This document shows positions 19,402 to 45,326 of a stretch of DNA of 64,000 bases, piece after piece. Numbering within the stretch: position 1 is the first letter of the stretch; each line of letters starts with the position of its first letter. Both the position numbers and the translations under genes were made by a program. A model generated the notes under the pieces. It ran no database searches. It was given only the letters and a program-made list of their open reading frames with translations, and had not been told where the DNA came from. This stretch comes from Hypanus sabinus (lineage: Eukaryota), in assembly GCF_030144855.1 (NCBI RefSeq), contig NC_082731.1, positions 26,908,001 to 26,972,000 on the forward strand. The letters run 5' to 3'.

Positions 19402-19484
19402 TGTTCGAGTTTCGGGAGACGCGATAGTGCGGGGTTTAAGTTCGGTGAAGGGTATTGGGCAGGTAGAATTGGTAGCGAGACGGT

Positions 19485-22400
19485 GTGGTAAAGAGGTGGG
19501 GTCTAGCTGGGTGTTGGTTCGTACGAGTGCTGAAGTCAGGACGGTGGAACTGCCGGCGACGGTCAGTGTACCGGGGGAGGCGGGGCTGTGGGGGCTCCAC
19601 TCCTACAAGGATGAGTCAGCTATTCAGTGGCTCTCTGGAGGAGGACAAGGTGGCGTGGACTATCCGGCAGGCTTATAGGAAAGGTCCCCCTCCATCCTTC
19701 GGGCAACTGATTAGAGAGGTGCGAGAGGAAGAGAGAGCATTGGGGCGGAAAAGGGGCACGGGCCTACGGGAGCGATCCTCAGCGATACAGGAAGTGGTGG
19801 CTGAGTGGAAGAATGACAAACCCCCGGGGAGTAGGGAACCCCCTTTGGAGGGGAGGGACAGGGGAGGTACCTACTCTCAGGGGCGATCAGTGCAGTGGAT
19901 TGGGAGCAGGAGCCGTCCTGGGAGAGGAGGGGCAGCCGGCAGTGTGTGCTTTAACTGTGGGAAGGAGGGTCACTTTAGGTGGGATTGTGAGAGACAAGGA
20001 GTCCCGCGGAGGACAAGCCCCCCTGCGACTAAGAAGGGAGAGGTGTCGGGGAAACTTAGGAGAGGCTCAGTGAGGGAATGGACTGGAGCCTCTGGAGGAA
20101 CACGTTCCCAGAGATCAGCCGGAAGACCACCGGGTGCCCACGCCTCTGTTCCGGATGGGCTGGTAGGACCCCGTGCCAGTGTGGGTCTACGGATAGAGGG
20201 AGTTTACGCAAAAGCCGTTCTTGATACTGGATCGCAGGTGACCTTATTGTACCGGTCTTTCTACAATCAACATCTAAAGCATTTGCCCGTAACGCCATTT
20301 GACGCCCTGCAGATTTGGGGTGTGAGCGAGGGTGACTACCCGTACGATGGGTACCTATCGGTGAGATTGGAGTTCTCGGAGGGCGATGTGGGAGTGTCGG
20401 AAGCTATTGAGACGTTGGTGTTGGTGTGTCCTGACCCGGTGGAAACCGGTGGTGCTGCCCTCCTGGTGGGGACTAACTCCCCAGTTGTGCGACGGCTCCT
20501 GGGAGCTTGTAAGGAGAAAGGGGGGGAAGACTTTCTGGAGACCCTCTCGGTGCATCCAGTGTTTCGAGCAGTGTTCGAAGAAGGGGTTGCCTCCCAAGGG
20601 CTGGACCCAGAGTGTAAACGAGGGACGGTGTGGTGTACGCAGGCGAGGCCCAAGGTGATCCAACCCGGGGAGGTAGCACTAGTGATGGGGACCCCCAGAT
20701 TCCCAGGAGTGCCGACAGGAGAAGCCCTGTTAGTAGATGCCCCAGACGATCTTGAAGGGGAGACACGATTTCCGGCGGGGGCGCTGGTGAGGCCCGAAGT
20801 GCAGAGACCAGGGGTGGTACATGCGAGGCGTATAGCTATAAGTGTCAGGAACACCACGGCAAGAGAAATCACCTTTAAGAGGGGAATGCCGCTGGCACAT
20901 CTGTTCCCGGTGACGGTAATGTCCAGCGCACCAGTGCGGACCCCTAACGGGGAGGGATCAGAGCATCGAAGGGAGCTGACCGCTGAAGCCTTTAACTTCG
21001 GGGATTCCCCAGTGTCGCCGGAGTGGAAACGCAGGCTAGTGGAGAAGATGCTGAAGATGGAAGCTGTTTTTTCTCGGGGCGAGTTTGATGTTGGCTGCTC
21101 CAAAAGCACTCGCCACACCATCCGGGTGACGGAGGACACCCCGTTCCGAGAGAGATCCCGGCGGCTGGCTCCGGCAGATGTTGAGGACGTGCGACAGCAC
21201 TTGTGCAAGTTGAAGGAGGCCGGAATCATAGCTGAGTCTCGAAGTCCTTATGCGTCCCCAATAGTGGTGGCACGGAAGAAGAATGGGCGAGTGCGCATGT
21301 GTGTTGACTACAGGACGTTGAATCGGCGAACTGTCCCTGATCAATATACTGTCCCAAGAGTCGAGGATGCGTTGGCCTGCCTGAGCGGTGCAAAGTGGTT
21401 CAGTGTGCTGGATTTAAGAAGTGGGTATTACCAGATCCCGATGAGTGCGGCCGATAAAGAGAAGACCGCTTTTATCTGCCCACTGGGGTTCTTTCAGTTC
21501 GAACGAATGCCCCAAGGCATATCCGGAGCCCCAGCCACCTTCCAGAGGCTCATGGAGAGAACTGTGGGGGATATGAATCTGTTGGAGGTGCTGGTGTACC
21601 TGGACGATTTGATAGTGTTTGGATCGACTTTGGAGGAACATGAGGAGAGACTGTTGAAGGTGTTGGGCCGTCTTAATGAAGAAGGGTTGAAGCTTTCCCT
21701 GGACAAATGCCAGTTCTGCAAGTCGTCGGTTAACTACATTGGCCATATCATTTCGCGAGAGGGAGTGGCTACTGATCCAACCAAGATAGAGGCTGTGACC
21801 ACCTGGCCGAGACCCCAGAAAGTGGGTGCTCTGCGCTCATTTTTGGGGTTCTGTGGGTATTACCGGCGATTTGTGAAAGGATACGCCAAAGTGTGTCACC
21901 CGTTAACTCAGCTGTTGTGTGGCTATCCCCCGGTGGGGAAGAAGAGGACGGGGAACCAGAGGCAGGAGGCTGGAGGATACTGGAACCCGGCGGAACCTTT
22001 TGGCTCGAGATGGGATGATCAATGTGAAGAGGCGTTCCGATCTTTGAAAAGGGCACTGACCCAGGCCCCGGTGTTGGCTTTTGCCGATCCCCAGAAGCCA
22101 TATGTGCTGCACACGGATGCCAGCCGAGAGGGTCTCGGGGCTGTTCTGTACCAGGAGCATGGCAAAGCATTGAGGCCGGTAGCCTTTGTCAGCCGAAGCT
22201 TGTCGCCATCGGAGAGAAACTATCCCACTCACAAGTTGGAGTTCCTGGCGCTGAAGTGGGCGGTGGTGGACAAGCTGGGCGATTACCTTTACGGAGCCAA
22301 GTTTGAGGTGAGAACGGATAACAATCCTCTCACTTATATTTTGACTTCGGCGAAGCTGGATGCCACAGGACATCGGTGGCTGGCGGCATTGTCGGTATAT

Positions 22401-24554
22401 GATTTCAGCCTGAGGTACCGCCCCGGAAGCAAGAATATCGATGCGGATGCATTGTCTCGTCGGGAGCCGGGGGAGGAGGAGAGGGACGAGGAGTGGGAGA
22501 ATGTCCCTGCCCCTGGAGTGAAGGCGATGTGTCAGTTTGTTATCACCGTGAAGGCCGAGGGAAGAGGGAGGCTGGAACGAGCCGTGGACCATTTGGGGGT
22601 TTTTGACGACGCCATACCCCTAGTTTACTGTGACCTGACCGCTCTGGGGACTAAACAGTTGCCGGAACTGAGTCCGGGGGAAGTGGCAACTGCTCAGCAA
22701 AATGACCCGGGCATTGGCACGGTGTGGAGAGCGGTCGAGAAGGGGGATGGGGCGTTGGCTGAGAAGGCGAAACACCCATACGTGCCTCTGTTGTTGAAGG
22801 AGTGGTCTCGGTTGAAGTTAAAGAACAAAATCTTGTACCGGGTAACAACGCCTCCGGACCAACCCCGCTGTTGGCAACTGGTCCTGCCAGAGGAGTATCA
22901 CCAGACTGTACTCCAGGCCTTACATGATGATTCTGGACATTTGGGGGTGGAAAAGACATATGGATTACTCAAAGACCGGTTCTACTGGCCCCGGATGAGG
23001 GGGGACGTCGAAGAATACTGTAGGGGATGCCGTCGTTGCATCCAGAGGAAGACCCTGCCAGCGTTGGCGGCTCCACTGTCGCACTTGCAGAGTGCGGGAC
23101 CTCTGGACCTGGTATGTATGGATTTCCTGTCGATTGAGCCTGACACCAGCAACACCGCGAATGTATTAGTCATCACCGATCATTACACTCGCTATGCTCA
23201 GGCATTTCCCACCAAGGATCAGAAGGCGACGACAGTGGCGAAGGTGCTATGGGAGAAGTACTTTGTGCATTACGGCCTTCCCAGGCGAATCCATAGTGAT
23301 CAGGGGCGGGACTTTGACAGCCGCCTTATCCAGGAATTACTGACTATGCTTGGGGTTGAGAAATCCAGGACTACCCCTTACCACCCACAGGGAGATCCTC
23401 AGCCAGAGAGATTCAACAGGACCCTGTTGGATATGCTTGGGACGCTGGAGATTGGGCAGAAAAGCAGGTGGAGTCGTCATATTGGACAATTGGTTCACTG
23501 TTACAATTGTACTCGCAATGAGGCTACAGGGTATTCACCCTATTATCTGATGTTTGGGCGGGAAGCGAGGTTGCCCATTGACGTGTGTTTTGGAGGTGGA
23601 GTGGGTGAATTTCCCGGGAAGTCCCATCTAAAGTACGTGTCCGACATGAAGAGGGAGTTACAGCGGGCGTACGAGTTGGCCGAGGCGGCGGCTACCAAAC
23701 AAAATCAGCGGAATAAGATGCGGTATGATCGAAAGGTGAAGTTTGTACAATTATTACCGGGCGACCGGGTCCTTTTACGGAATTTGGGACTCCCTGGTAA
23801 GCACAAGTTGGCAGATCGATGGGCGGCCAGCCCCTATGTAATAGAGAGCCAGATGCCGAACCTGCCAGTTTACCGGGTGAAACCCGAGGATGGAAAAGGG
23901 CCTATCAAGGTACTCCATAGGAATCACCTGCTGCCACTGGGTCAAGCGGTGCAGGTGGATAAGGAGCCCGAGTGGGAGGTTACGCCCAGTACAAGGACTC
24001 TGCGAGGGAGCGGAGAACGGGAAGAGCCCGCTGCTGAAGAGCGGGGACGGGTCCCTCACTCGGGAATGGCTACCGATTCAGAGGAGGACGACTCAGATGA
24101 GTGGGTCCTGTTCCCATTCGCTAGTGCTCCAGTACCAGGAGAGGAGGCTCCTGGCCCTTCCCATACTGAATTGAGTGAGAGGAGGGAAGGTTTTGAGGGT
24201 CAGATGGAGAGGCAGCCTACATTGGTGGGAGAGAGGGTGGAATCTGAGCGTGAGCCGGAGAGATCTCGGGTGAGGGAGGACCCCTGTGAGGAAGGGGGTG
24301 CGGGTCTGTCAGGTAGACCTGGGGTGTCCGAGACAGTGGGTTCGCAGGTGACGAGGGAGCCCAGTGGGGCAGAAGGGGTATGGAGATCTCAGAGGATTAG
24401 GCGCCCCCCGGAGCGGTTGACATATGTGGTACCGGGAGAACCGAGTGTGATTTCTACTGCTCTGGGTAGTTATGTCATTGCCTTCTGCACCTGGGTTGGG
24501 TTTTGTGTGTTGCAAGAAGCTTTGGGGACCTCTAGTAATGCCATGAGGGCATGA
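19485..24554 (+). CDS. pol: Gag(C-terminal)-Pol polyprotein: CCHC knuckle, aspartic protease, RT, RNase H, integrase
   Basis: 1689 open codons; first ATG at 19611. CFNCGKEGHFRWDC (19947), LDTGSQ (20223), YLDD (21597), DASREGLGAVL, integrase HDDSGH...CRGC, MDF, HSDQG, ERFNRTL. Confidence 0.95.
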   Translation: MVKRWGLAGCWFVRVLKSGRWNCRRRSVYRGRRGCGGSTPTRMSQLFSGSLEEDKVAWTIRQAYRKGPPPSFGQLIREVREEERALGRKRGTGLRERSSAIQEVVAEWKNDKPPGSREPPLEGRDRGGTYSQGRSVQWIGSRSRPGRGGAAGSVCFNCGKEGHFRWDCERQGVPRRTSPPATKKGEVSGKLRRGSVREWTGASGGTRSQRSAGRPPGAHASVPDGLVGPRASVGLRIEGVYAKAVLDTGSQVTLLYRSFYNQHLKHLPVTPFDALQIWGVSEGDYPYDGYLSVRLEFSEGDVGVSEAIETLVLVCPDPVETGGAALLVGTNSPVVRRLLGACKEKGGEDFLETLSVHPVFRAVFEEGVASQGLDPECKRGTVWCTQARPKVIQPGEVALVMGTPRFPGVPTGEALLVDAPDDLEGETRFPAGALVRPEVQRPGVVHARRIAISVRNTTAREITFKRGMPLAHLFPVTVMSSAPVRTPNGEGSEHRRELTAEAFNFGDSPVSPEWKRRLVEKMLKMEAVFSRGEFDVGCSKSTRHTIRVTEDTPFRERSRRLAPADVEDVRQHLCKLKEAGIIAESRSPYASPIVVARKKNGRVRMCVDYRTLNRRTVPDQYTVPRVEDALACLSGAKWFSVLDLRSGYYQIPMSAADKEKTAFICPLGFFQFERMPQGISGAPATFQRLMERTVGDMNLLEVLVYLDDLIVFGSTLEEHEERLLKVLGRLNEEGLKLSLDKCQFCKSSVNYIGHIISREGVATDPTKIEAVTTWPRPQKVGALRSFLGFCGYYRRFVKGYAKVCHPLTQLLCGYPPVGKKRTGNQRQEAGGYWNPAEPFGSRWDDQCEEAFRSLKRALTQAPVLAFADPQKPYVLHTDASREGLGAVLYQEHGKALRPVAFVSRSLSPSERNYPTHKLEFLALKWAVVDKLGDYLYGAKFEVRTDNNPLTYILTSAKLDATGHRWLAALSVYDFSLRYRPGSKNIDADALSRREPGEEERDEEWENVPAPGVKAMCQFVITVKAEGRGRLERAVDHLGVFDDAIPLVYCDLTALGTKQLPELSPGEVATAQQNDPGIGTVWRAVEKGDGALAEKAKHPYVPLLLKEWSRLKLKNKILYRVTTPPDQPRCWQLVLPEEYHQTVLQALHDDSGHLGVEKTYGLLKDRFYWPRMRGDVEEYCRGCRRCIQRKTLPALAAPLSHLQSAGPLDLVCMDFLSIEPDTSNTANVLVITDHYTRYAQAFPTKDQKATTVAKVLWEKYFVHYGLPRRIHSDQGRDFDSRLIQELLTMLGVEKSRTTPYHPQGDPQPERFNRTLLDMLGTLEIGQKSRWSRHIGQLVHCYNCTRNEATGYSPYYLMFGREARLPIDVCFGGGVGEFPGKSHLKYVSDMKRELQRAYELAEAAATKQNQRNKMRYDRKVKFVQLLPGDRVLLRNLGLPGKHKLADRWAASPYVIESQMPNLPVYRVKPEDGKGPIKVLHRNHLLPLGQAVQVDKEPEWEVTPSTRTLRGSGEREEPAAEERGRVPHSGMATDSEEDDSDEWVLFPFASAPVPGEEAPGPSHTELSERREGFEGQMERQPTLVGERVESEREPERSRVREDPCEEGGAGLSGRPGVSETVGSQVTREPSGAEGVWRSQRIRRPPERLTYVVPGEPSVISTALGSYVIAFCTWVGFCVLQEALGTSSNAMRA

Positions 24555-24575
24555 CATTTGCTGGTGGGGAGAGAA

Positions 24576-25174
24576 TGTACAATGTCCTGGGTATGTTACT
24601 CAAAATGGCCTCTTTGGTTTGTTACAAGTAGGAATGTTTCTTTGTCGGATAAGTGTTTCTCTAGCCGTTGTTTCACTTTAGAATGGCTGATATGGTAATT
24701 GTATTCATTTGTTAATCAATGGGGAATGTCATTGTGTCTTGTGATGCTGGGAACTTGGGGGAGGGGTTTTTTCGCGGGTTTTTTGAGAGAGGCCGAGGAA
24801 GACATGGAAGAAGGTGGACGTGTGCTGGACTGCTCGTAAGACCACCGGGGTGGTCCCAGGTGCGACGGCCGGATGGGTCGATTGGTTCGTTGATTGAGCT
24901 CCAACGAGTGCACTAAACAGACTGAACTTTGATAAGTGGCGCCTTTTGTTTTTTTTCCTTGTGTATATATATTGTATTGCTTACTACTCTTTTTAATTTT
25001 AGTAAACTCTTTAAAGTGTATTTCATAACGGTATTTGTTGTGGATTTGATACTGTTGGCGGGCTCGAGGCGTAAACTCGATTCTCACAGCACCTGCGTGT
25101 ACGGGAGGTGGGTTGGAGAGTGGCTGGATCCCTTTTTCCCCTAGACATATACCAGCCTGTGGGTAAGTGTTACA
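24576..25174 (+). repeat. 3' LTR (599 bp) of the young Gypsy
   Basis: Starts TGTACAATGTCCTGGG directly after the PPT, ends GTGTTACA, followed by the TSD. Start resembles the LTRs at 37610 and 44839. Confidence 0.9.
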
Positions 25175-44004: not shown

Positions 44005-45326
44005 GAAGGGAGCTGAAAAGGGCTTATGAATTATTAGCTGGGGTTCTGGATGCCAAGCAGAATCAAGGAAATAAGAGGAGGTATCATCAAAAGGTTAGGA
44101 TCTCCCAACTCATGCCGGGAGATCGAGCCCTTACAAAGAATTTGGGGCTACTGTAGTGGAGAGACAGATGCCAAATGTCCCAGTTTTCCAGGTGAAACCA
44201 GAGGATGGGAATGGTCAAGATTCTCCATTGGAACCACCCTGAGTCCCTGGGATAAGAGGTGCGGGTTGACCCAGAGCCCAACCCGGAGCCTACACATAGT
44301 AAGAGGACTCTGTGGTATCGCCGGGCGACTCAAAGGCCAACAACAGGAGAGATTAGACTGGCCCCCACCCCTAATTGGGGTACAGACTTGGAGGATGAGG
44401 AAATAGGGGTGTGGTATATGCCGCATTTTCTAACTCCCCACTGATTGAAGAAGTGATTCCCAACCCTTCTCCCATTAAGTCAGGTGAAATCTGGGGGGAG
44501 GGTCTATCCGTGGACAGCTGGAGGTTGAGTGGGACCCCACAAGGAATGAAGTGGGGCTCGGCCAAGGGACAGAGGAGTCCGAGTTGCAGGAGGGCACGAG
44601 TAATAGACCGCGGAAGGCCTCTCCAGGTAGACCAGAAGTACCCCCAGTACTGAAGAGGTAGGTGAGGGGGTTCAGAGGTCTTAAAGAATCAGGAGACCTC
44701 TGGATAGGCTGGCCTATGTAGCACCAGGGAGCAGAGCGGTGTCCCTACCGCTTTGGGGAGCTGTGTCACTGCCTTTTGCAGCCCGGTTGGACTTTGTGTT
44801 TTGCAGGAAGGAAATGAATAAATTTGGTGGGGGGAGTCTGTAACATCCTGGGAAAGGTTTCACTGCTAAAGTTATGGTTGTTCTGTAGCAGCAGTGTTTG
44901 GGCTATGACTAGAGTTAACGGCTTTGGAATGTGCGGTGTCCATTGAAGGGAGTGTTTTCTCTCGTGCCTGAGAGCGACTGGTTTGAGGTCTTTTGTTCAG
45001 GGAAAGATGGAGAGAGAAGATGCCAAAATGAAGAGGTTGTAGACTGCAGGATGAAGTGGACTTGGAATGGGGCCGGGAGTCGATGATGCCCGGGGGAAAT
45101 CAGTGGAGGACTGATGGACAGGAACCGTGAGCTCCAATGTGCTCATTAGACTGTTACATTAAAATGGGCCCTTTTCCTTTTCTTTTCCTTTACTAACCCT
45201 CTAGTCAATTTAAAAATTGTAAAGCTAAATTGTTTAATTATATACGGTGTACTGTCTTTTATTTCTTGATATTGATTGGTAACAGAGGAACACATCACGC
45301 AGCATCCACAAAAACAAGAGGTTTTG

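Follow-up and report, generated by a model that had tools for sequence, protein, structure and literature searches.

The closest described relatives of the element studied here are the PNMA-Gag Ty3/Gypsy elements of fish and amphibians, which the available text of PMC3670739 places in the Barthez lineage, and which have the same domain order, a PNMA match, LTRs, an acidic spacer, and a basic motif in the tail. Their C-termini finish with a hairpin, a Cys/His module, or a helix that bears charges; the ray group described below is alone in having an uncharged, extended helix.

Other known systems resemble parts of this layout. Tail-anchored proteins and the C-terminal tails triaged by BAG6 (10.1101/2022.07.20.500724, available text) share with it a single hydrophobic helix at the extreme C-terminus, partly derived from non-coding DNA; according to that source, the BAG6 complex takes hydrophobic tails of non-coding origin for degradation or membrane targeting. 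The ray helix differs in being carried by a protease-processed retroelement polyprotein, and its membrane insertion is putative. The sORF2/FAST-like proteins of the MDG1 group (10.1101/2025.03.14.642691, available text) likewise belong to env-less retrotransposons of Gypsy type and have a short predicted TM segment. However, sORF2 is described there as a small separate protein with a central TM segment, an N-terminal ectodomain, and a basic patch after the TM segment, whereas the ray helix is terminal, fused to the integrase, and preceded by its basic patch. We therefore reject an identity with these fusogens, as no small separate ORF, central TM segment, ectodomain, or basic patch after the TM segment is present.

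LANA, IE1, and the CBS of foamy virus Gag place a short arginine anchor on the same H2A triad that is predicted for the ray motif (PMC9040877, available text). The ray motif differs from these peptides in sitting on a retrotransposon integrase, with binding that is modelled; the word "retrotransposon" is absent from the available text of that review. Finally, the flexible integrase tail of MLV ends, as does the ray tail, in a short module (PMC5053271), and the available text of that source presents neither its BET-binding motif nor the chromodomain as a membrane helix. Our literature search, in which subscription papers were thinly covered, returned no retrotransposon integrase with a membrane anchor and none with an acidic-patch motif; we did not find the layout reported here, i.e. 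a putative membrane-anchor helix beside a predicted nucleosome-gripping motif, described.

Element structure and copies

The window (the whole stretch of 64,000 nucleotides analysed) contains a young Gypsy copy, assigned to group A, and a decayed copy assigned to group B (Table 1). The ORF of the young copy matches a zinc knuckle, RT, RNase H, and integrase in Gypsy order (Pfam; protease by motif), and the element has the domain order gag, PR, RT, RNase H, integrase of Ty3/Gypsy. A PNMA Pfam match is present in protein P0002 and its close relatives. Because the Pol stop lies only 21 nt upstream of the LTR, there is no room for env, and by membership the element is an ordinary env-less Ty3/Gypsy LTR retrotransposon, as the initial reading made from the letters of the window (hereafter the sequence-only reading) had stated. 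Its primer site resembles tRNA-Pro.

Table 1. Positions of the features discussed, in window coordinates.
Feature	Position	Strand	Remark
Gag-Pol ORF, young Gypsy copy (group A)	19476..24554	+	1692 aa; 5' LTR and part of gag absent here
gag-pol junction, single-frame type	20038..20065	+	
Integrase, folded (bounds approximate)	22668..23972	+	structurally nearest to the integrases of foamy virus and Ty3
Acidic spacer, ~130 aa, predicted disordered	23973..24362	+	net charge -16, weakly constrained (dN/dS 0.48)
Conserved basic motif	24384..24413	+	Arg1640 predicted to anchor in the acidic patch of H2A-H2B
Conserved Leu-Thr-Tyr...Gly stretch	24414..24446	+	one model gives a beta-hairpin, the other a coil
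Hydrophobic segment, old part, residues 1658-1675	24447..24500	+	ancestral amphipathic helix minus Arg, Lys, Pro
Residues 1676-1692	24501..24551	+	former 3' UTR; last four segment residues and 13-residue end
16-nt inverted repeat holding the stop codon	24540..24555	+	maintained in coding and non-coding context
Polypurine tract	24563..24575	+	
3' LTR (TG...CA)	24576..25174	+	
Decayed group B copy, homologous tail	44703..44821	+	followed by PPT (44826) and LTR (44839)

Near-identical copies of the window element are 99-100% identical to it (40 copies scored). The named protein most similar to its product (98%) comes from the stingray Hypanus sabinus. Among six longer stretches fetched, five hold a 7.1-kb env-less element with two near-identical LTRs and the sixth is rearranged; four have a single uninterrupted ORF, and a target duplication of 4 bp, read by eye, accompanies 4/6 copies. 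In one young copy (L061:3772-8952), an internal stretch is inverted and a third LTR, also inverted, is present. The sequence-only reading, which proposed a tail-anchored polyprotein, had named stops or frameshifts ahead of the hydrophobic segment in intact copies as evidence against this; in all 30 nearest copies fetched, the frame runs without interruption from the C-terminal domain of integrase through an uncharged segment to the same stop.

The homologous tail that the same reading had placed in the older element is also present, in a decayed copy whose tail matches residues 1392-1683 of the window protein (tblastn E 6e-21). This group B copy (window 44600-44860; L031-L038) occurs 8 times on one contig at 91-100% identity, which points to segmental duplication. 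It has upstream stops and a frameshift between basic motif and segment, and it stops earlier because ~28 nt are missing after the segment.

In contigs from four sequencing runs from other organisms, the segment is covered, no indel is listed, and two major differences are seen, one synonymous and one Ile/Thr. No RNA run is among those listed in the sequencing-run search for the segment.

Hydropathy and predicted structure of the C-terminus

Residues 1658-1679 (24447-24512) contain no Asp, Glu, Lys, or Arg, have a 22-residue mean Kyte-Doolittle (KD) value of 1.89, and are followed by 13 residues and the stop, which bears out the first description of this segment (KD ~1.9). The best 19-residue stretch (KD19) within the segment scores 1.77 and the next best elsewhere in the 1692-aa ORF 1.37. 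Likewise, outside its tail a natural 1937-aa Gag-Pol has a KD19 of at most 1.37 and a Hessa sum of at least 9.3, and by hydropathy alone (body KD19 at most 1.37) there is no earlier TM segment or signal peptide. As a soluble background we used the bodies of 119 related Gag-Pol proteins (189,250 residues, last 100 residues removed). A KD19 of at least 1.77 occurs in one of these bodies and of at least 1.6 in seven, so that KD alone is only borderline. By Hessa score, computed as a plain unweighted sum over 19 residues, the segment has 1.0 against a minimum of 5.3 across the background. The hydrophobicity of the ray tails is moderate across groups; e.g. a KD19 of at least 1.6 is reached by 7/14 group A and 9/29 group B copies, with a group B median of 1.42.

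AlphaFold places a helix at residues 1661-1684 in one model (pLDDT blocks 55-68) and over 1658-1691 when the tail is modelled alone (pLDDT blocks 74-95), and the segment is predicted to form one continuous helix. Hydropathy and AlphaFold thus give the single C-terminal hydrophobic helix that defines tail-anchored proteins, and the ray integrase tail looks like one of these by sequence, with putative insertion.

Basic motif and predicted nucleosome contact

Within the tail, conservation is highest at the basic motif, which the sequence-only reading had passed over. This motif is common to 108 of 124 related proteins (the other 16 lack it or are unscored), and its near-invariant residues are Arg (107/108), Tyr (107/108), and Gly (106/108).

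When the 36 residues before the segment are modelled with H2A and H2B from the same genome, ipSAE is 0.78, and the highest value among three controls is 0.00. Of solved pairs, 51/78 reach the mark used for ipSAE, as do 2/108 mismatched pairs (eukaryotes: 39/65 and 2/126), a calibration that peptides fall outside of. Contacts agree from run to run by at least 78%, partner pLDDT is at least 56, and the model contacts H2A Glu63, Glu66, Asp92, and Glu94, with Arg1640 touching Glu63 and Glu94. By our own numbering, these residues correspond to E61, E64, D90, and E92, the acidic-patch pocket used by LANA, IE1, and foamy Gag in the available text of PMC9040877. Since complexes of acidic-patch peptides have already been solved, the model may pass on likeness only. 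The basic motif is the most deeply conserved stretch in the tail and is predicted to grip the H2A-H2B acidic patch. It may alternatively serve nuclear localisation, a role that the integrase tails of Ty1 and Ty3 have according to the available text of PMC7175516.

C-terminal modules of related elements

Among the 108 relatives, the basic motif is followed by a His-Arg-Gly hairpin (48), a helix homologous to that of rays (22), or a Cys/His module (18). The hairpin is reminiscent of ET-domain-binding motifs, and the Cys/His cluster could be a zinc binder. The homologous helix carries one or two basic residues and ends at an early stop, and none of these 22 proteins reaches KD19 1.6 or an uncharged run of 19 residues. 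By contrast, such a run is found in all four ray proteins (names include Hemitrygon and Mobula). Two Cys/His-type proteins do reach KD19 1.6, yet their Hessa sums are 6.7 and 8.5. Across the proteins compared, the uncharged, extended helix is not general in this Gypsy clade and is specific to the ray lineage, while the Tyr-Val...Trp-x-Gly pattern of the helix is kept between fish and rays. In three Xenopus proteins (P0091, P0098, and P0103), 39 uncharged residues follow the basic motif (KD19 1.22, Hessa sum 7.9), a possible separate drift to an uncharged tail.

A profile of the ray tail yields 2 matches among 1.84 billion representatives, an unrelated repeat protein and a fish-type fragment, and 4 matches among longer proteins, all from rays, in a sample without sharks and skates. 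In the ESM Atlas, the ray tail gives no usable match and the fish-type tail finds one unnamed cluster at 0.77. A fold search with the tail model among viral structures returns nothing at E 0.001.

Origin of the tail within rays

Old ray copies found with the fish-type tail as query (group C) have a charged helix and an early stop. In the DNA alignment, the stretch that contains this stop is missing from groups A and B, so that what is 3' UTR in group C is read in frame in the other two. The distance from the Trp to the hairpin is 48 nt in 13/13 A and 12/15 B copies and ranges from 38 to 154 nt in 16 C copies. We rejected the idea that the old UTR encoded a second, conserved C-terminus reached by frameshifting, as the length of the UTR varies regardless of frame.

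A search with an intermediate copy as query adds 29 loci. In some of these the stop is retained but the Lys is gone, four of them showing a distance of 77; another 14 carry a 29-nt deletion, and in 13 of that set Ser replaces Arg. Ordered from the fish-like form to group A, the median Hessa sums of 77 hand-labelled copies are 10.0 (n = 3), 9.2 (23), 8.3 (8), 5.1 (11), 3.3 (18), and 1.9 (14), those of the older groups being somewhat inflated by decay, with diagnostic positions nonetheless group-wide. For the last five groups, nearest-copy distances toward A (54 rows, CpG-masked upstream DNA) are 0.197, 0.163, 0.150, 0.136, and 0.031. The copies compared show an order of change in which the Lys was lost, the 29-nt deletion removed the stop, and Arg and Pro were lost, with hydrophobicity rising as age falls; one change, Val to Gly, lowers it. 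In the ancestral helix, Tyr and Trp border a wide apolar face and Arg and Lys occupy the opposite, polar one; the hydrophobic moment of 0.51-0.65 falls to 0.37-0.47 after loss of both basic residues.

In a DNA tree built without the trait, from 58 usable rows out of 91 (97 loci), A is nested in late B. In an integrase protein tree (80 rows), all ray rows form one clade (99) within the fish-type helix elements, which makes the charged form ancestral. Contrary to the ladder, this tree has A as sister to B+C (support 91), with A+B not rejected (p-AU 0.287). Locus L078 joins a group C tail to group B upstream DNA and is probably a recombinant. All ray forms stem from one event, and the trend is thus that of one lineage, not a set of repeats. 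The two Gypsy elements of the window share the helix by recent common descent and are not independent cases. By this reconstruction the hydrophobic segment is not ancient, but has a single origin within rays, from a charged helix and a former 3' UTR.

Selection on the tail

Between the window copy and 22 group B copies, dN is 0.19 in integrase, 0.52 in the spacer, 0.18 in the basic motif, 0.20 in the segment, and 0.41 in the last 13 codons; the corresponding dN/dS values are 0.10, 0.48, 0.10, 0.28, and 0.31. These values inflate the conservation of the tail, because the B copies were picked by likeness to it. First plus second position differences between segment and spacer reach only p 0.097. 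Among variants in 36 A and B copies, charged residues account for 8/34 of those seen once and 0/14 of those shared (one-sided p 0.048). The sequence-only reading had suggested this synonymous versus non-synonymous comparison and had named conservation at the nucleotide level only as evidence against its proposal. The outcome is that constraint on the segment is on the protein, judging from a dN equal to that of integrase.

The gag-pol junction

Group A has two types of junction: 259 exact-pattern copies keep gag and pol in two frames and have both a gag stop and a heptamer that resembles a slippery site, and 103 have one frame. The single-frame subfamily includes the window copy and copies with identical LTRs, and its free Gag may come with help in trans. 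B and C copies show a similar slippery-like site, the junction being readable in only 17/40 older loci. No zinc knuckle is found in the Pol ORF of the 25 nearest relatives, and 61/78 more distant relatives have the single-ORF arrangement. We reject gag-pol fusion as the driver of the tail by timing, as the hydrophobic tail long predates the fusion.

Function of the tail

The tail is real, selected, and lineage-specific, and its origin is unusually well recorded; its function is what we infer. We tentatively favor a protein-constrained, ray-derived helix that likely serves as a tail anchor on the ER or nuclear envelope, beside a predicted nucleosome-binding motif, although we stop somewhat short of calling this probable. 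From the proposal of the sequence-only reading, the hydrophobic C-terminal helix and the protein-level constraint hold, but not a helix general to the clade. None of the three outcomes that this reading had named against itself came up in the analyses made here. Being the sole hydrophobic stretch of Gag-Pol, 13 residues from its end, the segment would suit an anchor. Against this, hydrophobicity is moderate in group B, the aromatic pattern would suit binding to a particular protein no less than to lipid, and most relatives transpose with no helix of this kind. Since Pol is normally enclosed in the capsid and integrase has to get to chromatin, a bilayer-spanning end is hard to square with the element, unless it is cleaved or threads out, and the tethering of particles to membranes, raised earlier, is topologically awkward for the same placement of Pol.

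The helix could instead be a module through which the integrase tail binds proteins or associates with itself, its aromatic face binding a partner and its second face packing on protein, with no entry into the membrane. We hold this to be possible but doubtful: end modules are exchanged behind the same basic motif, the aromatic positions are maintained from fish to rays, and the flexible MLV integrase tail offers a precedent in a short Trp motif that binds BET proteins (PMC5053271, available text), but a helix that is apolar all round and exposed, with the lowered moment given above, is unusual for a soluble tail. It is unlikely that the tail acts as a hydrophobic signal of the SGTA/BAG6 type, marking Pol or integrase for degradation or sequestration and so reducing their level compared with that of Gag. 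Stop loss into a 3' UTR does create the class of tail captured by BAG6 (10.1101/2022.07.20.500724), single-ORF Tf1 and Ty5 obtain their Gag excess through Pol instability (PMC7175516), both as far as the available text of these sources goes, and the window subfamily, with gag and pol in one frame, has still spread. However, the timing is against it, given the two-frame A copies, the similar site in B and C, and the Pol ORFs of the nearest relatives, and the single-ORF distant relatives include no comparable tail outside the ray group.

Tolerated drift, in which a founder deletion put a T-rich UTR in frame and hydrophobicity is a functionless by-product, would fit a single event that involves few codons and in which not every change raises hydrophobicity; we find it quite improbable, given a segment dN at the level of integrase, no shared charged variant, and a Trp-to-hairpin length that is fixed in A and nearly so in B compared with its spread in C. 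We give hardly any credence to the idea that conservation stems from an RNA or DNA signal acting in cis beside the polypurine tract. Such a signal had been offered as the alternative to an anchor, and a 16-nt inverted repeat is indeed kept just 5' of the tract in all ray groups, coding or not, with 5-6 of 6 pairs in 13/13 A, 18/20 B, and 20/23 C copies holding it; moreover, pS is 0.46 in the segment vs 0.68 in integrase. Yet the repeat lies 28 nt beyond the segment, the dip in synonymous change falls short of significance (6/22 vs 105/251 third positions, p 0.26), and RNA folding there is unremarkable (z-scores -1.35, 0.29, and 0.31). The repeat would account only for the stop and the last five codons, and the cis reading is largely refuted for the segment. 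A literature search on a 16-nt inverted repeat beside the PPT returned no paper.

If the tail is an anchor, as we tentatively favor, the ancestral charged helix would have lain on the membrane surface, and loss of charge together with four added apolar residues would have let it span the bilayer. Insertion would be post-translational, through the tail-anchor route, leaving the whole polyprotein cytosolic and 13 residues luminal. The anchor would gather Gag-Pol on the ER or nuclear-envelope membrane for assembly, the 130-residue spacer would leave integrase free to reach nucleosomes at the nuclear envelope, and the nucleosome-binding motif would end up about ten residues from the bilayer. A bolder version, in which the integrase sits as an integral protein in the ER or nuclear envelope, holds nucleosomes through the adjacent Arg anchor, and ties integration to the nuclear periphery, and in which this anchor is an undescribed, clade-wide chromatin tether of vertebrate Gypsy integrases, strikes us as possible but doubtful.

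If the integrase is membrane-inserted, this would give an env-less retrotransposon a novel means both of exploiting host membranes and of getting to chromatin. Whatever its function, the ray copies provide dated natural intermediates of a hydrophobic C-terminal helix born from a charged helix and a 3' UTR, and this natural series of short peptides makes it testable how tails derived from non-coding DNA escape degradation and become membrane anchors. The basic motif, in turn, points to possible acidic-patch tethering by many Gypsy integrases of fish, amphibians, and rays.
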